Below, piece by piece: positions 44,567-62,785 of a DNA stretch of 64,000 bases. A program made the position numbers and the translations under genes. The notes below the pieces were generated by a model. That model saw only the letters and a program-made list of their open reading frames with translations, was not told where the DNA came from and did no database searches. The DNA is from an uncultured Bdellovibrionales bacterium (GTDB taxonomy: Bacteria; Patescibacteriota; Minisyncoccia; Moranbacterales; UBA1568): assembly GCA_964384235.1 (NCBI GenBank), contig CAYLJX010000001.1:169110-233109 (forward strand), given 5' to 3'. Every line of letters starts with the position of its first letter. The stretch's first letter is position 1.

Positions 44567-44599
44567 GTGTTATATTTTTCTTTCAATTTTTTGAGACAA

Positions 44600-44646
44600 G
44601 ACTCCCCCGGCACATTTTGCAAAAACGGGGGAGTCTGGTTTTTTAT
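44600..44646 (+). terminator. Rho-independent terminator after the hydrolase gene
   Basis: GACTCCCCCG ... CGGGGGAGTC followed by TGGTTTTTTAT. Confidence 0.75.
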
Positions 44647-45246
44647 ACCGGTTAAGAAAGTAATATAATCCTACGACCGTGGAATTATGACACTTTTTGT
44701 GACAGATGGAATGAAGAGAGTGGAATGGGTCGGGAAGGAGATATATATCGATGTACCTTGGAATATCCAAAACGTCCCAGAACGCAAAATTTGAAGTCGT
44801 TTGGGGAATGGAAAGAAGCCGAGAGGTTTTTCTTCAAGGATTCTTTTTATTCAAGGCTTTTCAGATTAATATAATGTCGCATAAGTTACATTATGCGACG
44901 TTGTATACAAACTAAAGACAAGTACAATTGGCGATGAAAAATTCTTTCAAAACGCAATCATCCTCTCCTGATGACCGCTGGTGATGACTCTTTCCCCCTG
45001 CCGATGCCTGGTAAATTTTAGCGGGTGAATTTTTTGAAAAAAAATAATTTCAAAATAAAAAGTTTAAAATATTCCGGCTCCCCCGAAGATTGGAAAAGAA
45101 TTGAAAAGCCGGGAGCGATCATGAGAGATCGGTCCCGGTCTTCTTATTCTTGTGATGCATCATACAATCTAATGCTCATCCTAATGTTCATCTGATGCTT
45201 CTGGGGTTTGTTCCGATGTGTGGAAGTGTCGACGGATGTCCTGTTC

Positions 45247-46026
45247 TTAAGTCGTCGAAATCCCGTTCACTCGGTAGTCCCGTTCCACCCCGTTCTGCTT
45301 GAGTGGACGAAGCGCCTGGTCTGCGATGTCCTTCGCTCGTTCGTAGATATCGCAGAGTCTGTCACGGGAGGAAACGCGGAGAGTGCCCACTCCGCCGCTG
45401 GTTCCTACCCTGACCATGTTTCTGCCGTCTTGCTGTCTGCCGCCGAACACGAGCCGCGAATCGTTCCGGAGTGATTCCGTGAACGCGGTTGTGATGCGTA
45501 TGCCTTCGTCATGATCGATGCCCGGGAGGATGACAATGAACTCATCCCCTGCGCGGTTGGATCGCCCGACGAGATTTTTGCGGTCTTGGAAATGCTCGCC
45601 CAATATCTGCGCGAAGGTACGGAGTGCTTCGTCTCCCGTACCGTGTCCGTGTGTATCGTTCACTTGCTTGAAGTGATCGAGATCGAAATAGACGAACGTG
45701 ACGACGATGGAGTCGTCTTCTGCACCTGCATTGCGTAATCCGCGAAAAAGTCTTGATACGTAGGATTTGAACGCCTGCTGCAGTCCGTACTCGTTCAGGA
45801 TCCCGGTGAGATAATCGTGTTCCAACTTATCCCGGATTTCCTGATTGCGACGCTGCAGCCGATCGTTGCCTTTCTGGAGTTCATCGATTTTTCCTTTCAG
45901 TCTGATGTTCTCCAGTGAGGTGACAACGAAGCCTCTTTGAAGCTCGCATGAACGACAATCGCGCCCGTTGACGATCCCGACAGTCTTACAGGACTTGCTG
46001 GGTGTCCGAGGTTTGAGAGGATTCAT
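45247..46026 (-). CDS. GGDEF-domain protein (diguanylate cyclase-like) with AGDEF variant active-site motif and an N-terminal Cys-cluster/coiled-coil
   Basis: DLDHFKQVND..HG.GDEALR...RSNRAGDEFIVIL; N-terminal C-x8-C-x2-C; SD AAAGGAAC. Confidence 0.8.
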   Translation of the reverse strand: MNPLKPRTPSKSCKTVGIVNGRDCRSCELQRGFVVTSLENIRLKGKIDELQKGNDRLQRRNQEIRDKLEHDYLTGILNEYGLQQAFKSYVSRLFRGLRNAGAEDDSIVVTFVYFDLDHFKQVNDTHGHGTGDEALRTFAQILGEHFQDRKNLVGRSNRAGDEFIVILPGIDHDEGIRITTAFTESLRNDSRLVFGGRQQDGRNMVRVGTSGGVGTLRVSSRDRLCDIYERAKDIADQALRPLKQNGVERDYRVNGISTT

Positions 46027-46312
46027 GACTTGTGTTCCTTTTCAGTCCGAAACGGTCGTGGTCGTGAAGTGACACGAACAAGACGGATTACCGGAACGTG
46101 GCAGGTGTGGTAGGGAACGCATGATAGTCTCCTTTCAGGAGGAAGTGATTGAAAAAGGATTGATGAAACGTCTGATGCGCGTGAGTCTTCGAAACCTCCG
46201 GTTCGAAAAAGTTGTCAAAGGACTTTTAAAAACACGCTTCTCACGGTCTTGTTGCACGAGAAAGGCACGTGATATGGAAGCAACCTTATTACAGGGATTC
46301 CGGTTTTTTCTT

Positions 46313-46362
46313 TCAGACAAACAAAAAACCGGCGAGCGAGTACTGCTGTACGCTTGCCGGTT
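46313..46362 (-). terminator. Rho-independent terminator between the two GGDEF genes
   Basis: The minus strand reads AACCGGCAAGCG ... CGCTCGCCGGTT followed by TTTTTTGTTTG. Confidence 0.75.
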
Positions 46363-46383
46363 CAATCTTAATCCCGAGAAATT

Positions 46384-47328
46384 CTAACCCAGGATATCCT
46401 CGATTTCCTTGGCCAGACTGACGCGGTTACGTCCCTTCGCCTTGGAAACATAGAGGGCGCCGTCGGCTGCGTTGATGGCGCGATCGATTGCTGCCTCGAC
46501 CTCCAGGTTATTGAGATGCTCACTGTCGAGATGCACCTTGGCCACGCCGATGCTTGTCGTGATGCGAAGCGCTCCATCGGCAAAGAGGAAGGTATGGTCC
46601 GCTTCGATTTCTCGACGCAGCTTCTCGGCAAGTTCCAGGGCCCCTTTTTCGTCCTCCTGGATGATGACGAGGAACTCATCCCCTCCCTTTCGGCCGACGA
46701 TATCCGACCCGCGACGACGGAAGACTTCCAGAAGCTTCTTGGCGAATGCCGCAAGCGCCCTGTCCCCTTCCTTGTGTAATTGCATCTCGTCGTTCAGGAC
46801 CTTGAAGCCGTCGAGATCGAGGAAGATGACATACATCTCGGGCATCTCGAGCACGATGTCCGGATGCTGCTTCTCGATCTGTCGCAACGTGTGACCTATG
46901 AGACCGGCCTCACGTTGCATGGCGATCTTGATGCCACGCAAGTTCAGGATCCCGGTCAGCTCATCCAGGAAAGCGATTTCTTTCAGCTGATCCCTCTCCT
47001 TCGTCAGCTCAAGGATCGTTGTGGTCGCTCTTGCTATCACTTCCTGGTCCCGTTCGTGAGAAGCGGCCAGTTTCTTGAGGAGCCCTTCCAGTTTGATGAT
47101 CTCGTTCCGCGCTCTCGCGTGGGCGTTGATCATCGTTTTGGTCTGGCTTGAGGCCTCAGATACTGCATGCTCCAACACCTCCTTCTCTTTTTCGAGCCGC
47201 TGGTTTTCCTTGTGGAGCTGATTGAGCTCAGCCTGCTGCGGGAACAACTGAAACAACTTCTTGATCCACCCCCCGATGAGGAAGGCGGCGAAGTCAACCA
47301 TGCCGTTCTGTTCATTCTTGGTAGTCAT
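46384..47328 (-). CDS. GGDEF-domain diguanylate cyclase with N-terminal coiled-coil
   Basis: Canonical RKGGDEF motif (VGRKGGDEFLVII), DLDGFKVLND, and inhibitory-site-like KVHLDSE. Confidence 0.85.
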   Translation of the reverse strand: MTTKNEQNGMVDFAAFLIGGWIKKLFQLFPQQAELNQLHKENQRLEKEKEVLEHAVSEASSQTKTMINAHARARNEIIKLEGLLKKLAASHERDQEVIARATTTILELTKERDQLKEIAFLDELTGILNLRGIKIAMQREAGLIGHTLRQIEKQHPDIVLEMPEMYVIFLDLDGFKVLNDEMQLHKEGDRALAAFAKKLLEVFRRRGSDIVGRKGGDEFLVIIQEDEKGALELAEKLRREIEADHTFLFADGALRITTSIGVAKVHLDSEHLNNLEVEAAIDRAINAADGALYVSKAKGRNRVSLAKEIEDILG

Positions 47329-47566
47329 TTTCAGCCCTCCTCAGGCAAAAAGATGTGGAAAGTTGAGCGCAAAACAGAGGTCTTGGCACTCAGGGGGTGA
47401 TTTTAAGGTACAATTACCATTATAGTACAAAAACATATTTTTGTCAAGAGTGCTCGAGCGAGATTCTTTTGCTACAATACAGATGATTGTTTACCAATCA
47501 TTCACTCTTACTCTTGTTTTCTCTTCTCACTTTTGACTTTTAACCTTTGACTTTTGCCTTTACGTT

Positions 47567-48724
47567 ATGCGTCTCTCCTACTCCAGTCTCGATACCTACC
47601 AGACCTGTCCGCTCAAGTACAAGTTCCGCGAGATCGACAAGCTGTCTGAGCCCAAGTCCAAGGAGGCACAGTTCGGCACGCTCATCCACTCGGTGATGAA
47701 GTATATCCATACGCCGAGCCTCCTTCCCCCTACCCTGGAACAGGCGCTCGACCTCTATGCCAAGGGATTCAATCCGGAGACGTACGACAACGAACTCGAG
47801 GAACGCGCAGCCTTTTCCGCCGGCGTGCAGATGATTCAGAATTACTACGGGAACAACAAACCGGAGGATTTCACCATCGTCGACTTGGAAAGCCGTTTCG
47901 CTATCGAGATCGGAAACGAGGAAACAGGGAAACACATTGTCTCCGGTATCATCGACCGTATCGACAAGACCGCCGATGGCTACGAGATCATCGACTACAA
48001 GACGACGCGCAAGATGCCCTCGCAGGACAAGGTCGACAACGACATCCAGCTCTCCATCTATCTCACGGCGTTTCTCAAACGGTATCCCAAGGAAGCCGAG
48101 AACCTCGACAAGATCACGGTGAGCCTCTACTACCTCAAGCACGGCGTGAAGCTTTCTTCCAAGCGGACGAAAGAGCAACTGGAGAAGTTGGAAAAGACCT
48201 TCCTCGATGTCATACAGAGCATCGAAGAGGAGAAATTCGACCCTATCCTCTCCCCTCTCTGCGACTGGTGCGGGTATCAGAAGATCTGCCCCCTGTGGAA
48301 GCACAAGTTCGCCGAGACCCACAAAGTGGAAACGGACGAAGTGAAGCAGGCCATCGGCGACTATATGGATCTCAAATCGAAGATGAGCGAGGAGAAACTG
48401 CGTCTTGGCAAGCTTCAGTCCCTCATCCTCTCCTACATGGAACAGGAAGGCGTGGAGCGCGTCTTCGGCGAGCAAGGCATCATCGGCAAGTCGCTCCGGA
48501 AAACGTACAAGTACGATGAGGAGAAACTGAAAAATCTCCTCGAGCCGCTCGACAAGTGGGAGGCCGTTCTCAAGGTCGACGGCGTGGCGCTCCGTAACAT
48601 CCTGGCCGTCCTCCCCTCTTCCGTGAGACAGGAGGCCGAATCCGCCAAGACGATCGACAAGGAAAGCGTCTCGCTCTCCGTCAAGAAAGCGAAGATCGAG
48701 GCGGATGATGAGCTTGCGTTCTGA
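47567..48724 (+). CDS. PD-(D/E)XK nuclease superfamily protein, Cas4/RecB-like, with Cys cluster
   Basis: N-terminal Cys (TCPLKYKF), catalytic core D..EIIDYKT (D-x(n)-E-x-K), and C-terminal CDWCGYQKIC (C-x2-C-x5-C). Standalone; no CRISPR array or cas genes nearby. Confidence 0.7.
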   Translation: MRLSYSSLDTYQTCPLKYKFREIDKLSEPKSKEAQFGTLIHSVMKYIHTPSLLPPTLEQALDLYAKGFNPETYDNELEERAAFSAGVQMIQNYYGNNKPEDFTIVDLESRFAIEIGNEETGKHIVSGIIDRIDKTADGYEIIDYKTTRKMPSQDKVDNDIQLSIYLTAFLKRYPKEAENLDKITVSLYYLKHGVKLSSKRTKEQLEKLEKTFLDVIQSIEEEKFDPILSPLCDWCGYQKICPLWKHKFAETHKVETDEVKQAIGDYMDLKSKMSEEKLRLGKLQSLILSYMEQEGVERVFGEQGIIGKSLRKTYKYDEEKLKNLLEPLDKWEAVLKVDGVALRNILAVLPSSVRQEAESAKTIDKESVSLSVKKAKIEADDELAF

Positions 48725-48776
48725 AACGCTCCGTGACGTGATATACTAGAGGTGTCTTTTTTTGTAACCGATAAAT

Positions 48777-49922
48777 ATGAAAATCGAGCAGCGACGGTTC
48801 GTAAGCGGAAAGTGGGAGGCACCGGTTGGTCCGAACGTCGGCGCTACGGCGCAATTGGTCCTGGCGTTCGGAAGCCGGGCGCTGGTCGAGGACGAGAGCG
48901 CGTATAAGCAGCTCGCCGAGTGGTATCCGGCGGCCAATATCATCCTCGGTTCGACATCGGGTGAGATTTTCGATACGACAGTCGCGGATGACACGTTGTC
49001 TGTCGCGGCGATCTTTTTCGAAAAGACGACGGTGGTGGTCGGCAAGACGACCATCGAAAATTATGAGGAGAGCCGTGAGGTCGGACGTCGCCTGGCGGGA
49101 ACGCTTCCTCAGGAGGGTCTGACGCATGTGCTCGTATTTTCCGAAGGATTGAAGGTCAACGGGACGCAACTGGTAGCCGGTCTCGGTGAGGGTTTGCCGA
49201 AAAACGTTTCGGTGACAGGTGGTCTGGTCGGTGACGCGGAGCTTTTCAAGGAAACGGCGGTCGGTCTCGACGGACCGGCACAGTCCGGTATCGTGGTCGC
49301 GGTCGGTCTCTACGGAAACGCCCTCAAGGTCGGCTATGGGTCGCTCGGCGGTTGGGATCCCTTCGGTATCGAGCGCATCATCACCAAGTCCAAAGGCAAC
49401 ATCCTCTACGAACTCGACGGTCGCCCGGCCCTGGAGCTCTACAAGGAATATCTCGGTGATCAGGCCAAGGACCTCCCGGGCAGCGGTATCCTCTTTCCTC
49501 TGAGCATCGAGGTCAGAACCGGAGGAAAAGAGGCCAACGTCGTGCGCGCCGTCCTCTCCATCAACGAGGCCGATCAGAGCATGAACTTTGCCGGCGACGT
49601 ACCGGAAGGCGTTCCTGCCCAGCTCATGAAGGCCAATTTCGAACGCATCATCGAAGGCGCGGAAAAAGCCGCTAGCATGAGTATCGAGAGCATCGGGAAC
49701 GGTCAGGCCGAACTCGCCCTTCTGGTCTCCTGCATCGGCCGGAAGATGGTGCTTCGCGAACGGACCGAAGAAGAGCTCGAAGCGGTCCGCAACGTGGTCG
49801 GTCCGCAGGCGGTCATCACCGGTTTCTATTCGTACGGCGAGCTCTGTCCGACAGTCGCTACCGAAAAGCAGTGCCAGCTTCACAATCAGACGATGACCAT
49901 TACCACCCTGCGCGAAGAGTAG
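48777..49922 (+). CDS. FIST-domain sensor protein (FIST_N + FIST_C)
   Basis: Typical FIST sequence (LVLAFGS..., GGLVGDAELF, ITGFYSYGELCP). Confidence 0.75.
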   Translation: MKIEQRRFVSGKWEAPVGPNVGATAQLVLAFGSRALVEDESAYKQLAEWYPAANIILGSTSGEIFDTTVADDTLSVAAIFFEKTTVVVGKTTIENYEESREVGRRLAGTLPQEGLTHVLVFSEGLKVNGTQLVAGLGEGLPKNVSVTGGLVGDAELFKETAVGLDGPAQSGIVVAVGLYGNALKVGYGSLGGWDPFGIERIITKSKGNILYELDGRPALELYKEYLGDQAKDLPGSGILFPLSIEVRTGGKEANVVRAVLSINEADQSMNFAGDVPEGVPAQLMKANFERIIEGAEKAASMSIESIGNGQAELALLVSCIGRKMVLRERTEEELEAVRNVVGPQAVITGFYSYGELCPTVATEKQCQLHNQTMTITTLREE

Positions 49923-49956
49923 TCATTCAAAAAGCAAAAAAACAAACACCACTTTC

Positions 49957-50673
49957 ATGACTTTCGATTTAAACTCTCTCAACCTGCATCCCACGCTCAA
50001 GCGGCAGATCACCAGGTATCTTCCTTCGGAGACGCCGGTTCTCGCTGTGCATGCGCCCATACTCAAAGCGATCAGTGAGACCTATACCCACGCCGACGAC
50101 GATCGGACGCTCTTTGGGCGCTCTCTGGACCTGAGTTCCAAGGAACTCTCTGGGAACGTCTCTCTGCTCAAGGCGACGCTTGAGGCGACGACCGACGGTA
50201 TCCTCGTGGTAGGAAGTGACGGCCGGATCGTCACTCACAACCAGAAATTCGTCGACATGTGGCACATCTCCAAGGAAGTGATGGCGACGCGGCAGGATGA
50301 CAAGGCGATCGAGTTTGTCCGGGAACAGCTCGTCGATCCGGAGACCTTTACGGAAAAGGTCAAAGAACTGTACAACCAGGCGGATGCCACAGGCTTTGAT
50401 ATCTTGGAGTTCAAGGACGGCCGTGTGTTCGAGCGCTATTCTATCCCCCAGAAGGTCAGAGGCAAGACCGTGGGTCGCGTCTGGAGTTTCCGCGACGTGA
50501 CGGAAAAGTACCGGTCGGAAAAAGACCTCGAGAAGAAGGTCGTCGAGCTCGAAAAGATGAACAAGTTCATGATCGAACGCGAGCTCAAGCTCGTCAACCT
50601 CAAGAAGGAACTCAAAGCCCTCAAGGCAAAGTACGGCGAATCCTCCCCTGCCGAGGAGGAGGAAGCGGTCTAA
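49957..50673 (+). CDS. Stand-alone PAS-domain protein with C-terminal coiled-coil, no output domain
   Basis: PAS fold (LEATTDGILVVGSDGRIVTHNQKFVDMWH ... GRVFERYSIPQKVRGKTVGRVWSFRDVTE). Confidence 0.75.
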   Translation: MTFDLNSLNLHPTLKRQITRYLPSETPVLAVHAPILKAISETYTHADDDRTLFGRSLDLSSKELSGNVSLLKATLEATTDGILVVGSDGRIVTHNQKFVDMWHISKEVMATRQDDKAIEFVREQLVDPETFTEKVKELYNQADATGFDILEFKDGRVFERYSIPQKVRGKTVGRVWSFRDVTEKYRSEKDLEKKVVELEKMNKFMIERELKLVNLKKELKALKAKYGESSPAEEEEAV

Positions 50674-51386
50674 GACCCTTTCTTTTGGATCGTCGCGACA
50701 ATCGCGGCGTGGTCACTTACACCGAATTGTAGTCGGACGTTTTCAGTCTGGTATTCCGGGGTACTGAAGAGCCCGTCGACCATGAACCGTACCGCTCCCT
50801 TGGTCTTGTGAAGGTTTGGATCCAGGCTGGTATCGTACTTGCTTGGGATATGATCTCGATATTTCATGGCGATCGTATCAAAGGTTTCCATTCCTCGGGG
50901 AGCGTTGAAGTCGCCGCAGAAAAGGATGTCACGGTAGCCGGAGAGGAGATCGAGAAATACGGAAAGGTCGCGACGTTGCCGGTCGTCAGGTTCCCCTTTT
51001 CCCGTGAAGGTGAAGTGCGTCGTTCCGATCGTGTAATCAGTCCCATCGCAAGAGACCGACCCGGTGAGAAGTACCCTGTTGACCACATGACCCCAGGTGA
51101 AATCTTTTGCGGAAAAATAATATTCGGTCCGGATATCCGTGAGCGGAAAGCGTGAAAACAAGCCGATACCGACCATTGCCTTTTCCTCGTCGGGATTTTC
51201 GATTGTACCCATTGGAGCGAAGGCATGATAATAGCCATATCTCTCTGCGAAATCGTGCACCTCGTTTTCCCGCAGCTCCTGAAGGCAGAGGATGTCTGGG
51301 TTTTCTCTCGCGACGAAATCACGGACCCGCGTTTGGTGCATGGTCCCGTCCGCCCCCTGGATATTGATGGATACGAGCTTGAGCAT
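50670..51386 (-). CDS. Endonuclease/exonuclease/phosphatase (EEP) family protein
   Basis: LCLQEL, GDFNAP and SDHAAIV motifs. Confidence 0.8.
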   Translation of the reverse strand: MLKLVSINIQGADGTMHQTRVRDFVARENPDILCLQELRENEVHDFAERYGYYHAFAPMGTIENPDEEKAMVGIGLFSRFPLTDIRTEYYFSAKDFTWGHVVNRVLLTGSVSCDGTDYTIGTTHFTFTGKGEPDDRQRRDLSVFLDLLSGYRDILFCGDFNAPRGMETFDTIAMKYRDHIPSKYDTSLDPNLHKTKGAVRFMVDGLFSTPEYQTENVRLQFGVSDHAAIVATIQKKGS

Positions 51387-51395
51387 GGGACTCTT

Positions 51396-51740
51396 TCAGT
51401 TTAGTTCAGAAACGAGTTGAATCCTGATCGCAAGAACGCCGAATTCTTTCTCCTCTTCCGGAGTGTATGTCTTATACATTTTCATATATTCGTCCTGGCT
51501 GAGGCTCCCGTATTCATTCGGTGGAAAGGCAGCGAACATTTCTTTGAACGAAGGAAAGACTGATAGAGCGAGTATCTTGGTTAGGATTTTCTCTTCTTCA
51601 TCGTGCGCAAGACGAAACTCGATCTCGTCCCCTATTTTGAGCCGTCTTCTTTTCTCATCGTTCAATCTGATCTCGATGACTTTCGATCCATCCTTGATTT
51701 TCCCAAATCCGCTGGGATTGAGTTTCATGCGATGAAGCAT
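51396..51740 (-). CDS. ASCH-domain (PUA-like, nucleic-acid/modified-base-binding) protein
   Basis: GSKVIEIRLNDEKRRRLKIGDEIEF core; markedly lower GC. The track start (TTG at 51797) coincides with the -35 box of its own promoter, so the ATG at 51740 is used (51728 is also possible). Confidence 0.6.
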   Translation of the reverse strand: MLHRMKLNPSGFGKIKDGSKVIEIRLNDEKRRRLKIGDEIEFRLAHDEEEKILTKILALSVFPSFKEMFAAFPPNEYGSLSQDEYMKMYKTYTPEEEKEFGVLAIRIQLVSELN

Positions 51741-51768
51741 AGGGTTGACGGGTCTATATAACAACTGA

Positions 51769-51797
51769 AATATAGCCTTAAAACAAGCTTTTTTCAA
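51769..51797 (-). promoter_or_regulatory. Promoter of the ASCH-EEP operon (TTGAAA-17-TATATT)
   Basis: Minus-strand TTGAAA (51797-51792) and TATATT (51774-51769). Confidence 0.55.
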
Positions 51798-51862
51798 GAG
51801 AGAAACAGTCTGAAATCCTAAGAGATAAAACGATAGTTTTGACAGGTTTTTGTTTCTTTGGC

Positions 51863-51890
51863 TTGAAAAAAATCCGATTTTGTGTAGAAT
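51863..51890 (+). promoter_or_regulatory. tRNA-Gln promoter (TTGAAA-16-TAGAAT)
   Basis: Sequence read. Confidence 0.55.
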
Positions 51891-51916
51891 AGGGAGGTAT
51901 ATTTTATGACCGATAT

Positions 51917-51988
51917 TGGGGAGTAGCCAAGCGGTAAGGCACCAGGTTCTGGCCCTGGTATGCGTAGGTTCGATCCCTACCTCCCCAG
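51917..51988 (+). tRNA. tRNA-Gln (anticodon CUG)
   Basis: UGGGGAG acceptor paired with CUCCCCA, anticodon stem CCAGG/CCUGG with loop UUCUGGC, T arm GUAGG-UUCGAUC-CCUAC. Confidence 0.85.
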
Positions 51989-51996
51989 CACATCAA

Positions 51997-52039
51997 ATCA
52001 AAGAACGTATCCTTCTTTGGGTGCGTTCTTTGATTTTAT
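51997..52039 (+). terminator. Rho-independent terminator after tRNA-Gln
   Basis: ATCAAAGAACG ... CGTTCTTTGAT followed by TTTTAT. Confidence 0.75.
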
Positions 52040-52257
52040 CTGAAGAGTAGGAATCGAACAGTGAAAGGGGTCGGGAAAACTCCCGTTTTCCCGTTGCGGA
52101 GAGCAGCCCGTCAGGGCGCTGAGAACCGAGGGGTTCTCAGAGAGCGCCGAGTGAAACGAGAAGCGAGTGAGATCCTGCCTCCACAGTATTTCAACATAAA
52201 AAAATCGGGTGATTGGAAGGATTCCAACCACCCTTTTCATGTCATATGACCCGTCGG

Positions 52258-52689
52258 TCAGCTGCTGGTCCGTTGACCGTTTTTCGACCCGACCCCGAAG
52301 AATTCTGCCGCGTCGTCGACGTTTGTCATGCCGAACGGCTTCCCTTCGCCGTCTTCGATCGCCTTGCACACTTTTTTCATGCATTGGGCGAAGAGCTCGA
52401 CCGCATCTTCCCAGACACGCATGGTCTGTCGGAGCGATGTCTCAGACAGGGAGCGCTCCGGCTCATTACGGCCGTATCGGCTCAGGGAGACATTATGCTT
52501 CTTCCCGTCGCTACGGAGGGAAAGTCCTCGGATCACGTACAGGTCTTGCGTGTGTAGCTCTACCCAGACCTGGCCCAGATCAAGCGAGATTTTGCCGCGA
52601 GGACTGCGGCGGAGTTCGGGGTGTCCCTGAGGTCTTTTCCCTTGTAAGTCACCCAAGCGCCTCGGTGAAAGTTTGCTTTTAACAGTCAT
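52258..52689 (-). CDS. Hypothetical basic protein, co-oriented immediately downstream of the HD-hydrolase gene
   Basis: SD GGAGAG 6 nt before the ATG at 52689 (track start 52701 lacks an SD). Arg/Lys-rich; no recognisable domain. Confidence 0.4.
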   Translation of the reverse strand: MTVKSKLSPRRLGDLQGKRPQGHPELRRSPRGKISLDLGQVWVELHTQDLYVIRGLSLRSDGKKHNVSLSRYGRNEPERSLSETSLRQTMRVWEDAVELFAQCMKKVCKAIEDGEGKPFGMTNVDDAAEFFGVGSKNGQRTSS

Positions 52690-52822
52690 GATTCTCTCCA
52701 TACCCGTTTTGGAAAACAGCTACTGTCATTTCTCGCATGACCCAGTCATTCTGTCAATGCAATCCGGTACCCTGGTCCTTTTCTGAAAAAAACGCGCCGT
52801 GGTCCTGTGGTCAGGTACGGCG

Positions 52823-53497
52823 CTAGAGGTTCTCGGCTTCGCGCAGGGCGGCACAGAGCTCCTTGTAGAGGAACTGGTACTTCCTGGCGAGATCCAAAAG
52901 GTGGATTTTCGTCTCACGCGTCTTGTACAGACGGCGGGCTCTGTCCCGGATGAAGCAGAGGGTGATGATGTTGTGGAGCCGGTCGCAGAGCTTCACCCGG
53001 ATCGACCCGGTATGTACCCGGCGCATCCTCCCTCTCATGCGGGGTTTCACGGCGTGGCTTCGTCTGATGCGGGTGTAATAATATGCGGCCCGATCCTCTT
53101 CGGAAGCGAAGTAATGCAGATGCGGGATGATGGTGCACTCATCGACGATCTTAGCGATGCTTCTTCCGAAGCGTGCCGCGATCTTGTACGTCGGCCATCT
53201 CGTCCAGAATTCCTCTTGGATGTCATGGAGGATGAGAGCACAGATTACCCGATAATCCTTGATGCCGGCGTAGATGACTCCGATCACCACGACGGCGTGG
53301 AGGTGGGTCATGTACGGTTCCCCGCTTTCGCGTCGGACGTTTGCGAATTCGTGCTCGGCGAGCTCGTAGGCGTCCTTGATGGAACGATAGCGGTGATCGG
53401 TACGTCTGAAGAGATGCCCTTCCAGATGACGGAAGAGCGACTGCTTGGAGGCGTAGCGCTCCAAGAGGCGGCGAATCTTCGCTAGTCTTCCGTCCAT
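52823..53497 (-). CDS. Stand-alone HD-domain (p)ppGpp pyrophosphohydrolase, RelA/SpoT hydrolase-domain homolog (small alarmone hydrolase, Mesh1-like)
   Basis: HEFANVRRESGEPYMTHLHAV, ILHDIQEE and VKLCDRLHNIITL match the RSH hydrolase motifs. The start ATG at 53497 carries SD AGGAGA; the track TTG at 53572 overlaps a TTGACG -35 box. Confidence 0.75.
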   Translation of the reverse strand: MDGRLAKIRRLLERYASKQSLFRHLEGHLFRRTDHRYRSIKDAYELAEHEFANVRRESGEPYMTHLHAVVVIGVIYAGIKDYRVICALILHDIQEEFWTRWPTYKIAARFGRSIAKIVDECTIIPHLHYFASEEDRAAYYYTRIRRSHAVKPRMRGRMRRVHTGSIRVKLCDRLHNIITLCFIRDRARRLYKTRETKIHLLDLARKYQFLYKELCAALREAENL

Positions 53498-53596
53498 GGT
53501 AAGTCTCCTGATTGGGTTGAATTGGGAAAGATCCAGACATTGAAACATACCCCATTTTAGGGTATTCGTCAAGGACCGTTTTTTGCTTCAGGGAAG

Positions 53597-56540: not shown

Positions 56541-56590
56541 TTGACAGGTCTTTCCTCTCTTTGCTACTATACCTATACCATAGGTATAGG
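56541..56590 (+). promoter_or_regulatory. Promoter (TTGACA-18-TACTAT) followed immediately by a perfect 8-3-8 palindrome CCTATACC-ATA-GGTATAGG, a candidate CsoR-family operator
   Basis: TTGACA at 56541-46, TACTAT at 56565-70, palindrome at 56572-56590, ATG at 56615. CsoR/RcnR operators are ATACC..GGTAT-type inverted repeats. Confidence 0.55.
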
Positions 56591-56614
56591 ATATTAAATA
56601 CTGAGTAAGAAAAT

Positions 56615-56890
56615 ATGGAACGAACCCACAAGGAAAAGGTGGCCATCGCCATCAAGAAAGCCGAGAGTCACCTCTCAAAAGTCCGTTCATTGATCGAGGA
56701 AGACGCGTCCTGTTTCGCGATCATGCAGCAGAACCTGGCTGCCATAGGTCTCCTGAAGTCGGTCAATCTCCTTATGTTGGAGGGGCATATCGACCGTGAG
56801 ATAGGCAGGCATGGTGGCCCGGCGTCGAAACAGCTGCAGTCCCTGAAAACGGAGATCCTCAAGGTCGTGAAGACTTCGCAGAACAAGTAA
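56615..56890 (+). CDS. CsoR/RcnR/FrmR-family (DUF156) metal- or aldehyde-responsive transcriptional repressor
   Basis: 91-aa all-helical protein with conserved Cys (EEDASCFAIMQQ) and His (LEGHI) at the family W-X-Y-Z positions; it lacks the second Cys of bona fide Cu-CsoR. Confidence 0.7.
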   Translation: MERTHKEKVAIAIKKAESHLSKVRSLIEEDASCFAIMQQNLAAIGLLKSVNLLMLEGHIDREIGRHGGPASKQLQSLKTEILKVVKTSQNK

Positions 56891-61000: not shown

Positions 61001-61342
61001 TTCAATGCCACCTCGATGATCGGGGTGATCGCCCTCTCCGGACTTGCGGTCAAGAACGCGGTCATCTATCTCGAATACCTCGAACCGTTGAAACGGGCCG
61101 GCAAACCGATCGAGGAAGCGTTGATCGAGACCGGCCGTATCCGGCTTCTTCCGATCGTTCTTACCTCTCTCGCGGCCATCTTCGGGTCGCTGACCATCGT
61201 GAGTGATCCGGTCTGGGAAGGACTCGCCTGGTCGATCATCTTCGGTCTCGCCGCATCGACGTTTCTGACGCTCATCGTCTTCCCGCTTGCCTACTACCTA
61301 TCCGAACGAAAATCCTGGACTGACAAGAGTCGTCATACGTGA
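58055..61342 (+). CDS. RND-superfamily efflux transporter permease (AcrB/CzcA-like), 1095 aa
   Basis: 12 TM helices with two large periplasmic loops; typical RND motifs (LAAISIPLVLLAVFG.., GLLVDDAIVVVENI). Confidence 0.85.
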   Translation: MKNHDKDTSNQVSLGLAGKITRVFLVNKELSILSIIVLFVWGAVSFWLMPKQYNPEIVAPAFTISTEFPGASAEEAYELVTRPLEDMISELPGIDEITSESHPGGRSVVTVKFLVGSDREDAKTTLNQKLRDNIGLKPAGAAEPTVQSVDPDDVPILDIGLSSETLSESSLRKLAFDVADELKRSEGVSKFEIKGGRTNHLQVELDANRLSALDMTIGEVTRAITGQNDVFTYDSLQGDGRDPVVNIVGSVRDRKELSRLIIRKEGDMAVRLGDVAAVSYGPGEITDYVRIRNRGSVSGPVVHIAFSKLKGTNSTAVSTAVLEKLEVLKEGLIPSDVTVTVLSDEGKTAQDEIGKLTFDLVKSIVIVGILLYVFLGAKNSLIAAISIPLVLLAVFGMGLLAGETVNRITLFALILSLGLLVDDAIVVVENIARYFRLYPEEKKTVLIVRAVDEVGGALSLSTMTMALAFLPMAFVTGMMGPYMGPIPFFVPAALFASLLFAVTINPFLASLLVSGKKSDDASLERSYESGIFFRISKRVETRYAGYLSGLLADKKKRRLFLSGVLVMLVFSLVLPMTPLVPFRMLPKADKDQFYVYLDMPAGSSLGKTASAATALEEAILRMAEIESVESFVGESQVIDFNGLFKGSAARTYGHQATLKAHLTPHTERDEVSEAIVARLRGELDGYLQEYPDATIRLIEDPPGPPVLSTFLLKVKGKDDVMRERIAQDFEAMMGSIEGIVDIKTTLPERGLDLTYRVDRDKAAMLGIAPRDIVSTIHTALSGSTVGLYHGSTREDIRKAEAEHVVVRFRQEDRNGEGDLSRILLSGKDGTSTPLSEVIVKTDGAVEPAILSDGRERTTYLSGEMEGRSVVYAAIDIFPWLFSYALPDGTGKLVSWSPFGMTYEDQTTHERYSVGIGGEWELTLEVFRDLGIAMGLAMFLIYFVLAAKTESLFVPLLIMVSIPLSLIGVLPGFAVLYALKGTYFNATSMIGVIALSGLAVKNAVIYLEYLEPLKRAGKPIEEALIETGRIRLLPIVLTSLAAIFGSLTIVSDPVWEGLAWSIIFGLAASTFLTLIVFPLAYYLSERKSWTDKSRHT

Positions 61343-61357
61343 TCCTCTGGTCAAGCA

Positions 61358-61392
61358 AAAGAAAAATCCGGCCTGATGCCGGATTTTGTCTC
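61358..61392. terminator. Bidirectional Rho-independent terminator between the convergent RND and DsbA genes
   Basis: AAAATCCGGC-CTGAT-GCCGGATTTT with U-tracts on both strands. Confidence 0.8.
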
Positions 61393-61404
61393 AATAAAGA
61401 GGAA

Positions 61405-62424
61405 TTACTCCGCGAGTTCCTTGTCGATCGCGGCTTTGAGCTCGTCTTGGCTGACCGCGCCGGAGAGGAGCGTGTCGTTGACGAAAGTGACCGGTGTGCC
61501 GGAGAGCATGAACGACGCGGCCTCGTTCTTGTCGGCGTTCACTTTCTCCTGATACTTCTTTTCGTCGAGACACTGCGAGAATTTCCGTCCGTCGAGGCGG
61601 AGCATCCAGGCGTAGTTCTTGAACTTCTGCGTGCCGACGGAGTTTCCCCAGTCGTTCTGTCGTCCGAAGAGGGCCGCGGCATACGTCTCGAATTTCCCCT
61701 GCTCGTTGGCACATTCGGAAGCGAGCGCGGCGTTTTCCGCCTGCTTGTTGGAAGCGAGAGGGAACTGTTTGAAGACGAAGAGTACTTTTCCTTCGTACTC
61801 CTTGAGCACCTTGGTGAGGGTCTGCTGATAGGTCTTGCAGTGGGCGCACTGGAAATCGGAGAAGACCGTGAGAGTCACTGCAGCGTCCTTGGGTCCGATG
61901 GTGATGGAATCACTCTCCACTTTCGGGAGTTGGAGATACTTGCCGGCGGTCAGACCGATCTTGGTCATGTCGAGGAAGTAGCGCCCGGATTCCTCCCGGA
62001 AGAGGCTCTGTGCCTGAGCGTAGAAATCCGTTTCCGTGATGCTCTTGGAAAAGACGAAGGCCGGGACGGTCACGATCTGGAAGCGGTTGATGAGGGCCTG
62101 GCCGAGATCGGAGTCGCTCTCTACGCTTACGGCCTCGATGGTCGGAACGATACGGCGAAGCCACACCAGTGCCTCGTTGGGATCGCACTGCTCGCAATCG
62201 GAATCGTTCACGACTTGGAGCGTCACTTTGGGGTCATCGTACGCGACCCACGTCTTGCCGGCAGTTTCCAGAAGGTTGTGTTCCTTCACTGCTTTCCCGG
62301 AGAATCCCTGTCCCGTGGCGAGCTGGACGAAATCGACGAAGAGACTGCCGACAAACAGCCCGACAAGGAGGATGACGAGCGCGGAGAGGTTCTTGGCTTT
62401 CTGGTGTTCGGAAGCGGTTTTCAT
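61405..62424 (-). CDS. Membrane-anchored tandem thioredoxin-fold (DsbA-like) thiol-disulfide oxidoreductase
   Basis: N-terminal TM; two CxxC active sites (CEQC and CAHC) in two DsbA-like domains. The ATG at 62424 is chosen immediately before the TM helix. Confidence 0.7.
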   Translation of the reverse strand: MKTASEHQKAKNLSALVILLVGLFVGSLFVDFVQLATGQGFSGKAVKEHNLLETAGKTWVAYDDPKVTLQVVNDSDCEQCDPNEALVWLRRIVPTIEAVSVESDSDLGQALINRFQIVTVPAFVFSKSITETDFYAQAQSLFREESGRYFLDMTKIGLTAGKYLQLPKVESDSITIGPKDAAVTLTVFSDFQCAHCKTYQQTLTKVLKEYEGKVLFVFKQFPLASNKQAENAALASECANEQGKFETYAAALFGRQNDWGNSVGTQKFKNYAWMLRLDGRKFSQCLDEKKYQEKVNADKNEAASFMLSGTPVTFVNDTLLSGAVSQDELKAAIDKELAE

Positions 62425-62437
62425 AGGGTTGTTGTGG

Positions 62438-62785
62438 TTATTGAGCGCTTGGACTTTTGTCCGTGCAGAGGGGTGCCGTGGGAGGATTCGGCGAGACGGC
62501 GAGCGACCCGCCCTTCGCGAGGATGTCACTCTGGACCTGGTTGAAATCGACGAGGGTCCGGGAATCGGCGAGACGATAGTCCTCGAAGCCGATAGTCAGG
62601 ACGTTGTGGAGGGAAACCTTGAAAGCGATGCCCACGAAGAAGCCGAGGAAAAACAGAAGCGCGATGTCCCTCAGGGTGAAATCGCGCTCCATGAAGCGAA
62701 AAAAGACGTTTTTGGTTTCAAGAAAAAGGCTCCGGAGCCGTTCGGATAGGGTTTCGTGGGAGGAAGACGGAATACCTGTTTCCAT
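62438..62785 (-). CDS. Small membrane protein, unknown function
   Basis: One or two TM helices (IALLFFLGFFVGIAF); start uncertain (62785 or 62692). Confidence 0.35.
   Translation of the reverse strand: METGIPSSSHETLSERLRSLFLETKNVFFRFMERDFTLRDIALLFFLGFFVGIAFKVSLHNVLTIGFEDYRLADSRTLVDFNQVQSDILAKGGSLAVSPNPPTAPLCTDKSPSAQ

Follow-up and report, generated by a model that had tools for sequence, protein, structure and literature searches.

Among the described systems closest to the locus treated here, the dif site is a 28-bp target of XerC/XerD for which both sequences and a palindrome criterion have been published (Kono et al., 2011; PMC3025954), and NosP is a stand-alone FIST protein that controls a neighbouring kinase and, via this kinase, a regulator that metabolises cyclic di-GMP (c-di-GMP) (PMC12570481, PMC8846402). 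Examples of NosP/NahK (NosK)/NosR systems are found in Pseudomonas aeruginosa (PA1975-PA1976), Legionella pneumophila, and Burkholderia pseudomallei (BPSS1646-1648). In the papers that we searched, nothing relevant was found on either dif or FIST in Patescibacteria. In this study, we describe a region of about 9 kb (approximately 44.5–53.6 kb) of a window, by which we mean the whole stretch of 64,000 nt of Patescibacteria DNA that was analysed, where a dif-like palindrome, two GGDEF proteins, a PD-(D/E)XK nuclease, a FIST-PAS gene pair, and a tRNA-Gln gene are found side by side. An earlier note had taken this region for a single accessory island of signalling and nuclease genes. We consider it quite likely that the region is a patchwork around a conserved chromosomal landmark of Moranbacteria-type Patescibacteria and not one island or system, and on present evidence it is by coincidence that second-messenger enzymes are linked with three nuclease-like modules.

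If this reading holds, the AT-rich block with its palindrome would most likely be a replication-terminus dimer-resolution site, and the nuclease would be a housekeeping Cas4/AddB-like iron-sulfur enzyme for DNA-end processing, vertically inherited in the order LigT-WecG-GluRS-M23...nuclease. Gene content would be replaced from species to species in three slots, namely M23-GGDEF, nuclease-tRNA-Gln, and tRNA-Gln-FtsX. In the window species, these slots contain a NosP-type FIST protein with its partner, an unrelated ASCH-EEP pair, a strain-variable gene, and an HD_4 gene appended to the prfB-ftsEX cluster.

Window proteins were compared by tblastn with 83 nuclease loci, of which three (L090, L091, and L092) were looked up and 80 were obtained by scanning metagenome contigs with an alignment of the nuclease; the full 10-kb upstream flank is available for 31 loci. 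A second set of 80 FIST loci from Patescibacteria was collected by a genome scan with a FIST alignment, in which neighbours were counted within 10 kb of FIST, and the open reading frames (ORFs) of the window served as the reference for base composition. The locus itself recurs in several metagenome assemblies, among them strains at 97% DNA identity (L001 and L003). The 120 nuclease homologues listed are 71–82% identical and those that carry names are Candidatus Moranbacteria / Moraniibacteriota, and the names on FIST homologues are Patescibacteria, Doudnabacteria, and Taylorbacteria.

The left half of the region, which the earlier note had also counted as accessory, turned out to be conserved backbone, comprising the AT-rich block, the GGDEF position, and the nuclease. 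The three protein genes of this half are as follows.

47567..48724, + strand: PD-(D/E)XK nuclease, stand-alone, 385 aa (Pfam PDDEXK_1 E=2e-38, Cas_Cas4 E=5e-7)
46384..47328, - strand: GGDEF_B (Pfam GGDEF E=5.9e-22), with a long N-terminal coiled-coil and a canonical GGDEF motif
45247..46026, - strand: GGDEF_A (Pfam GGDEF E=2.4e-21), with an N-terminal coiled-coil and an AGDEF motif, without RxxD I-site

The region is flanked on the left by genes for an M23 peptidase and an alpha/beta hydrolase and on the right by FtsX-FtsE-PrfB. Upstream of the nuclease, the 83 loci carry M23 (34 loci), GluRS (31), WecG (27), and LigT (25), and by hand tally the LigT-WecG-GluRS-M23 block covers 28 of the 31 loci having the full upstream flank, at nuclease identities down to 43%. 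Since synteny is kept at such a low identity, the nuclease is best understood as a vertically inherited core gene, with 72–83% identity across Moranbacteria. The order shared by L090, L091, and L092, where the nuclease is 77–82% identical, is PriA on the opposite strand, LigT, WecG, GluRS, M23, alpha/beta hydrolase, a long gap, GGDEF on the opposite strand, and the nuclease. No cas1/cas2 with a CRISPR array was found beside the nuclease in the window or in the 83 related loci, and no helicase partner was seen among the flanking genes of the window and L090-L092.

By its sequence, the nuclease is assigned to the Cas4/RecB/AddB family. One N-terminal and three C-terminal cysteines (Cys14, Cys232, Cys235, and Cys241) are invariant across homologues, and a C-terminal extension of approximately 140 aa is conserved. 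Its score against TIGR00372 is 41.9 bits (cut-off 65), and it stays below the Cas4 and AddB equivalog cut-offs. The structure model, obtained from a shallow alignment, is of low confidence (predicted local distance difference test score 60.8, predicted template modelling score 0.38) and was used for the fold class only; its Foldseek matches are ACE1, which is an Argonaute-associated Cas4-family protein, AddAB, the Cas4 protein SSO0001, and AdnAB. When solved structures were searched by sequence, FIST had no match and the nuclease none of significance.

GGDEF_B and the nuclease are divergently transcribed, with a sigma-70-like promoter of GGDEF_B at 47447..47419 (12/12 match), and in GGDEF_B the GGDEF motif is preceded by RGSD at a spacing that fits an RxxD I-site. 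A GGDEF gene lies divergently upstream of the nuclease in 8 relatives, which are those with at least 72% nuclease identity and one at 65%. The window has two GGDEF genes at the position where relatives have one; the two are 30% identical to each other and each is approximately 31–32% identical to the single GGDEF protein of L098, the closest relative. We also observed that in deeper-branching relatives (L101, L112, L147, and many more) an iscR-iscS-iscU(-GNAT) operon is found divergent from the nuclease, between the palindrome and the nuclease, and that its place is taken by the GGDEF gene in the Moranbacteria subgroup.

The landmark itself is located in the non-coding block at the left end of the region.

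44567..45246, no strand: AT-rich intergenic region of 680 bp, GC content (GC) 0.396, between the convergent alpha/beta-hydrolase gene and GGDEF_A
44874..44901, + strand: 28-bp near-palindrome of 11-6-11 layout, ATGTCGCATAA-GTTACA-TTATGCGACGT
44596..44650, + strand: intrinsic terminator of the hydrolase gene, with 14-nt arms at 44596-44609 and 44626-44639, then a T-run

This block had been described as AT-rich and free of ORFs, and indeed it contains no ORF of at least 90 aa and none that is conserved in relatives. The matching non-coding gaps measure 389, 929, and 606 bp in L090, L091, and L092, respectively (range in relatives 389–930 bp), and blastn of the 680-bp gap against them leaves one conserved island, the palindrome. 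There is one copy of the palindrome in the 64-kb window and none in shuffles. Of the 83 nuclease loci, 38 contain it, each in a single copy (at most 7 mismatches to the consensus), and it is missing from 1.2 Mb of other Patescibacteria loci, and where it is found it has a constant orientation and always lies between the M23 gene run and the nuclease. The consensus is ATGTCGCATAAGTTACATTGTGCGACAT, with a right arm better conserved than the left. The window palindrome is identical to E. coli dif (GGTGCGCATAATGTATATTATGTTAAAT) at 17 of 28 positions, with inner arms CATAA/TTATG, and by hand comparison of positions 7–12 with 17–22, 5 of 6 pairs are complementary, in agreement with the palindrome criterion published by Kono et al. 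(2011).

In deeper-branching relatives, the M23 gene run and the iscR-iscS-iscU-GNAT operon converge, and the palindrome is situated between their 3' ends. The + strand share of coding bases in relatives is 83% upstream and 25% downstream of the palindrome, and the GC skew at third codon positions (GC3 skew) of + strand genes is +0.080 upstream versus -0.069 downstream (24 loci, Wilcoxon p=1e-6), a comparison in which most of the confounding by gene orientation is removed because only + strand genes are used. The flips of orientation and of GC3 skew in relatives are both hallmarks of a replication terminus. In the window genome, too, gene orientation is reversed at the palindrome. The alpha/beta hydrolase gene is the last of a run of + strand genes ending M23-hydrolase. 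A small conserved ORF ending at the palindrome was considered and rejected, as the 72-codon open frame of the window has no similar peptide in any related locus.

The right half of the region is of a different nature, since no sampled relative with a nuclease identity of at least 72% has the stretch of 48.7–53.5 kb that runs from FIST to HD_4. Its main genes are listed below.

48777..49922, + strand: stand-alone FIST_N+FIST_C protein (Pfam E=5e-42 and 3e-36, residues 26-358 of 381)
49957..50673, + strand: PAS protein, the kinase-less partner of FIST (PAS_7/PAS_4), with one PAS domain between an N-terminal module of approximately 65 aa and a C-terminal coiled-coil
50670..51386, - strand: EEP protein (Pfam Exo_endo_phos E=2e-16), second gene of an ASCH-EEP two-gene unit
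51396..51740, - strand: ASCH (PUA-like) protein (Pfam ASCH E=1e-8; phrog_19935 "RNA-binding protein" E=1.7e-24)
52823..53497, - strand: stand-alone HD_4 protein with a RelA/SpoT-type hydrolase domain (Pfam HD_4 E=7e-12)

In L098, where the nuclease is 83% identical, the nuclease is followed by a CMAS methyltransferase, a NUDIX hydrolase, tRNA-Gln, FtsX, FtsE, PrfB, and tRNA-Thr. The backbone common to the window and L098 is thus nuclease ... tRNA-Gln-FtsX-FtsE-PrfB-tRNA-Thr, and the slot contents differ. Other relatives carry other genes after the nuclease, which are CsoR-MFP-AcrB in L091 (AcrB is likewise found approximately +2.7–2.9 kb from the nuclease start in L100 and L169), hemerythrin in L092, and SpaA/sortase in L090; the CsoR-MFP-AcrB genes of the window are located after PrfB. 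No FIST, PAS, EEP, ASCH, or HD_4 gene was detected near the nuclease in the other 82 loci, except for one EEP gene in L154. The genes are equally scattered when viewed from FIST, contrary to the linkage in related genomes that an island would predict: within the 80 FIST loci, GGDEF, EEP, and ASCH are never found nearby (0/80 each), the nuclease is found once and HD_4 twice. As for the EEP gene of L154, where the nuclease is 55% identical, it encodes a homologue of 37% identity on the same strand, with an ORF start 1136 bp after the nuclease start, and it represents the sole nuclease-EEP proximity in the 83 loci.

Judging from its conservation, the FIST-PAS pair appears to be a real two-gene module, the one real functional module of the region. 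A total of 7999 FIST homologues were found, with approximately 60% identity across many Patescibacteria, and the window protein is 43% identical to a Legionella protein and 42% to an Azospirillum plasmid protein. Its Cys319, Cys366, and His369 are shared with proteobacterial FIST proteins. The NCBIfam NosP model NF041558.1 aligns with it end to end at 55.9 bits, far below the equivalog cut-off of 450, so that the window FIST is to be called NosP-like and not NosP. Of the 80 FIST loci, 61 have an ORF of at least 150 aa on the same strand that starts within 100 bp after the FIST stop. When these 61 partners and that of the window (n=62) were scanned, HATPase_c was found in 43 and HisKA in 42, usually after PAS domains, and Pfam detects neither of them in the window PAS protein. 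A segment of approximately 65 residues at the N-terminus (window 49957-50151) is common to the window PAS protein and 59 of the 61 partners, with the consensus MH..LERQ.KK..G....P.....FL..VS.TY...D.DR.L.ERSLELSSKEL and without any Pfam match in the scans of partners. The same module opens the PAS protein that follows FIST on the Azospirillum plasmid (L179 6139-6400), where a response regulator comes next. From these alignments, the window PAS protein is regarded as a homologue of the sensor half of those histidine kinases that come after FIST elsewhere, and the N-terminal segment is likely a FIST-docking module.

By analogy with NosP, FIST would sense a small ligand, nitric oxide via heme, and would act on its partner via the conserved N-terminal helical module of the latter. 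Bacteria of the CPR (candidate phyla radiation) are generally without heme synthesis, and thus the ligand of FIST may differ from that of NosP. Having no HisKA/ATPase core, the partner could play only an adaptor role, through its PAS domain and coiled-coil. In other lineages, short partners usually have a separate membrane kinase or Cache/HAMP protein encoded after them, or a receiver protein before them, which fits such an adaptor role. There is no kinase near the FIST-PAS pair of the window, and Pfam finds no receiver domain in the region proteins; both GGDEF proteins are without one and belong to separate transcription units. The nearest candidate targets of the partner would be the neighbouring coiled-coil GGDEF cyclases, a connection that we only infer and that is not conserved elsewhere. 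A FIST protein 80% identical to that of the window is found in a wholly different context. Just upstream of its gene lies a 51-aa Cas1-like fragment (L089 2221-2376), in a context otherwise unrelated.

The surroundings of tRNA-Gln show a different kind of variation, on the scale of strains.

51917..51989, + strand: tRNA-Gln(CTG) (ARAGORN, Rfam), preceded by a promoter-like site (51863-51890) and followed by a terminator hairpin (approximately 51995-52036)
52042..52186, no strand: structured GC-rich segment flanked by inverted fragments resembling the tRNA-Gln T-arm/3' end (52042-52059 and 52169-52186)
52161..52815, no strand: strain-variable segment of 655 bp, replaced by approximately 90 bp in the 97%-identical L001 and L003 (blastn of loci against the window)
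52258..52701, - strand: basic protein of 147 aa, without Pfam, NCBIfam, PHROG, or PADLOC hit

The promoter and terminator that had been proposed for tRNA-Gln were both recovered. The fold z-score is -5.1 for 51990-52200, and between the two inverted fragments there is a GC-rich hairpin domain of approximately 110 nt. The fragments are degenerate and lie approximately 50–200 bp downstream of tRNA-Gln, and the left breakpoint of the L001/L003 homology (52160/52161) falls at one of them. By its sequence features, the GC-rich segment may have been left behind by site-specific recombination at the tRNA. The traces near tRNA-Gln amount to a local site-specific rearrangement of a few hundred bases and do not concern the 9-kb region. 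The 147-aa gene is the only gene that differs between the strains. Its family comprises 75 representative clusters among 1.84 billion proteins, shares the motif G.RP.GHP...GQVWVE, and has an alignment too divergent for a viral-contig search. One relative of 1809 aa holds 16 copies of the domain. Relative to FtsX-FtsE-PrfB, both tRNA-Gln and tRNA-Thr lie in L098 (12986-13060 and 16130-16205) on the strand opposite to that in the window.

The best non-self homologues of EEP are 64% and then at most 54% identical, with a patchy distribution; among those at 52–54% identity, one is in a glycosylation cluster and one in an unrelated region, and no ASCH gene is beside either. A viral-contig scan with ASCH returned one relative, 33% identical. 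The HD_4 protein matches the TIGR00691 spoT_relA model in its N-terminal region with E=4e-18, far below the cut-off, and its gene is the last of a co-directional prfB-ftsE-ftsX-HD_4 run. In the L098 locus HD_4 was not detected, and tRNA-Gln comes directly after FtsX. HD_4 in its place between tRNA-Gln and FtsX is peculiar to the lineage of the window.

The gene content and gene order of the earlier note were all recovered at their coordinates (ORF map, Pfam scan, and tRNA scan), and its view of the base composition holds in part. The GC of the region is 0.523 against 0.551 for the window, which ranks 22nd lowest of 220 sliding 9-kb windows, and this deficit is due to the intergenic DNA and ASCH. 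A lower GC is therefore real for ASCH and the intergenic DNA, and all other genes, some of which had also been thought AT-richer, are inside the window's range; the 58–60% GC assumed for housekeeping genes does not apply, the window ORFs having an average of 55.8%. ASCH, with GC 0.438 and a GC content at third codon positions (GC3) of 0.51 (z approximately -4 for GC), is the sole compositionally deviant gene. The remaining region genes have GC 0.526–0.592 and GC3 0.62–0.80, the window genes GC 0.558 +/- 0.032 and GC3 0.675 +/- 0.086, and all genes other than ASCH are within approximately 1.5 standard deviations of the window gene means in GC, GC3, and codon-usage likelihood. The earlier note had proposed a comparison of GC and codon usage, which singles out ASCH alone among the genes and leaves the rest as native. 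It had also named the result that would count against an island, that is, genes scattered in related genomes and a GC and codon usage that are not distinct. As the genes are scattered in relatives and only ASCH is distinct, the island reading largely fails on these grounds. What remains of it is not a unit or a system, it is a variable stretch from the nuclease to FtsX (48.7–53.5 kb) that abuts tRNA-Gln and holds FIST-PAS.

That no known defence system is recognisable was confirmed. In a PADLOC-DB scan of 10 proteins (9 called proteins and the adjacent hydrolase), the only matches were Cas4 models on the core nuclease (best E=9e-12), with no Cas1, Cas2, cyclase, effector, or sensor match. The window contains no CRISPR-like repeat array. 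At the gathering threshold, Rfam finds only tRNAs over the window, and at an E-value threshold it gives only sub-threshold hits of chance level over both non-coding stretches.

On balance, the palindrome is a probable Xer/dif chromosome dimer resolution site of the clade, where a Xer-type tyrosine recombinase would bind both arms and exchange strands across the 6-bp centre. It is also possible, though rather unlikely, that it is not dif and is related to transcription, either by ending transcription in both directions or forming an RNA hairpin where operons converge, or by serving as the operator of a dimeric regulator. Such a role would agree with its position between convergent transcription units in most relatives, with a - strand scan that flags it as terminator-like, with the lack of a GC3 skew flip in the window genome, and with arm combinations which, where they are not Watson-Crick pairs, are mostly G-U-compatible on the + strand (35 vs 9). 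However, there is no U-tract, and the primary sequence including the loop is kept while the neighbouring proteins drop to approximately 45–50% identity, unlike terminator hairpins. Stem pairing is not kept up at the inner positions: of 36 distinct sequences, 16 have A-G at pair 9-20, and 7 have A-A at pairs 10-19 and 11-18. Neither is there a constant relation to a promoter, as the palindrome is 57–420 bp upstream of the nuclease in some lineages and at the 3' ends of both genes in others. The 11-6-11 layout, the CATAA-N6-TTATG core, the stronger right arm, the single copy, and the switch of orientation and skew in relatives all fit dif. Several observations nevertheless weigh against the patchwork reading and against dif as its landmark. 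The GC3 skew of the window is unchanged at the palindrome, with + genes at approximately -0.06 and - genes at approximately -0.22 to -0.27 on both sides over approximately 70 kb (window with extensions L177 and L182), and a downstream extension of the window by 5.8 kb still shows no flip. The skew-defined terminus may be elsewhere, and the missing flip may reflect a moved terminus, a recent rearrangement, or a palindrome that is not dif. By tblastn with E. coli XerD, a Xer recombinase was found neither in the window nor in the fetched loci except for L172, whose single XerD-like gene has no recognisable palindrome nearby. Close relatives (nuclease identity of at least 72%) with sufficient flanking DNA are a handful, all of them metagenome contigs, the functions of all region genes are deduced from homology, and a connection from FIST to GGDEF finds no comparative support (0/80 loci).

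It likewise weighs against the patchwork that the right half, missing in close relatives and abutting a tRNA with att-like fragments, could be one acquired block. In its full form, this alternative holds that approximately 48.7–53.5 kb (FIST, PAS, EEP, ASCH, basic protein, and HD_4) is one horizontally acquired stress/defence island integrated at tRNA-Gln, and we judge it improbable. It would account for the absence of the segment from all sampled Moranbacteria relatives, for L098 sharing the flanking nuclease and tRNA-Gln-FtsX-FtsE-PrfB and carrying CMAS and NUDIX instead, for the tRNA-3'-end-like fragments beside tRNA-Gln with the 655-bp strain difference starting at one of them, and for an AT-rich ASCH gene that matches a phage family. 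However, neither a recombinase domain nor another mobility gene was found (Pfam scan of region proteins; XerD tblastn of the window), no pair of direct repeats flanks the segment or spans the whole region, and FIST, PAS, EEP, and HD_4 have genome-typical GC, GC3, and codon usage. The genes of the segment belong to three different transcription units and flank the tRNA on either side, no pairing except FIST-PAS recurs elsewhere, and the defence models are without match. Far less probable still is the view that the GGDEF-nuclease pair works like CBASS or type III CRISPR, as a nuclease system under second-messenger control, with FIST/PAS as input and the nuclease as effector. The adjacency of GGDEF and nuclease in 8 relatives, the conserved C-terminal region of approximately 140 aa without assigned function, and a weak Cas10 palm match of GGDEF_B (E=0.006) speak for it, but the last is expected from the shared palm fold. 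The nuclease is still 43–69% identical where iscR-iscS-iscU or nothing replaces GGDEF, and thus does not depend on the cyclase. The GGDEF proteins are approximately 31–37% identical to those of relatives against approximately 80% for the nuclease, which indicates that the pair is not co-evolving. In addition, no cyclic-nucleotide sensor domain was detected in the nuclease (Pfam, PADLOC, and NCBIfam), and FIST is absent from the relatives that have the GGDEF-nuclease pair. A variant of this idea is very improbable as well. In it, the GGDEF cyclase and the Cas4-like nuclease, conserved as divergent neighbours, would form a second-messenger-controlled nuclease module beside a dif-like site, to which an extra cyclase and FIST/PAS input via a kinase-less adaptor would have been added in the window species; if true, it would give heme-auxotrophic, host-dependent bacteria a new way of linking a NosP-type sensor to DNA processing.

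Some further observations were made on the window and its relatives. The GC of the window genome is approximately 55% against 42–44% in L090, L091, and L092 (loci of 18–21 kb, nuclease 77–82% identical), which is a large compositional shift inside one Moranbacteria subgroup. Long shadow ORFs cover real genes, with 400 aa opposite FIST (48681-49883, - strand) and 401 aa opposite a DsbA-like gene (61339-62544, + strand); the genome is GC3-rich, and naive longest-ORF calling takes the wrong strand at both genes. Many contigs with a Patescibacteria-type FIST gene (among L009-L088) are labelled as Gammaproteobacteria, Methanosarcinales, Woesearchaeota, or Nanoarchaeia bins, and are probably mis-binned or mislabelled metagenome-assembled genomes. 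Another palindrome, ATACCTATACCATAGGTATAGGATAT, is found at approximately 56566-56592 in the promoter region of the CsoR-MFP-AcrB operon, where the CsoR-like gene starts at approximately 56616, and it looks like a CsoR operator. A direct repeat (48657-48695 / 56628-56666, 74% identity) that brackets exactly the segment lacking in L091 was attributed to chance, both copies being lysine-rich coding sequence (nuclease C-terminus and CsoR N-terminus).

With the patchwork as the preferred reading, the candidate defence/stress island does not hold and should not be carried forward as a novel system. The comparison shows instead that, from one closely related CPR species to the next, the backbone is stable and the gene slots around it turn over. 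It also provides a candidate dif site for a large Patescibacteria clade, and the palindrome could serve as a marker for the replication terminus in assembly checks and in replication-rate estimates on CPR genomes. A FIST protein of approximately 60% identity across Patescibacteria further raises the question of its ligand in organisms thought to be without heme synthesis.

Compared with the known systems, the window nuclease has in common with Cas4, AddB, AdnAB, and RecB the PDDEXK_1 and Cas_Cas4 domains and the four cluster cysteines, and differs in being stand-alone, in its extra conserved C-terminal region, and in its stable housekeeping context. The region is similar to tRNA-linked genomic islands in that tRNA-Gln is bordered by variable content and by partial copies of its 3' end, at one of which a strain indel starts, whereas it has no integrase or flanking direct repeats, its composition is native except for ASCH, and its genes are on both sides of the tRNA in separate units. 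As in NosP systems, a stand-alone FIST gene is immediately upstream of and co-directional with its partner, and c-di-GMP enzymes are nearby. NosP systems, however, have a histidine kinase and a response regulator, whereas the window partner is without HisKA/HATPase_c and no response regulator is present, and they have the c-di-GMP regulator in the pathway, whereas the proximity of GGDEF to FIST in the window is not conserved (0/80 loci). Finally, the palindrome shares with E. coli dif the 28-bp 11-6-11 layout, the conserved CATAA/TTATG inner arms, and the intergenic location, and it is single-copy within the window. In E. coli dif only the inner arms are alike, whereas the two arms of the window site are nearly the same sequence. 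In the XerH, XerS, and XerA systems one recombinase acts as a homodimer, and the near-identical arms of the window site suggest a single-recombinase Xer system of this kind.

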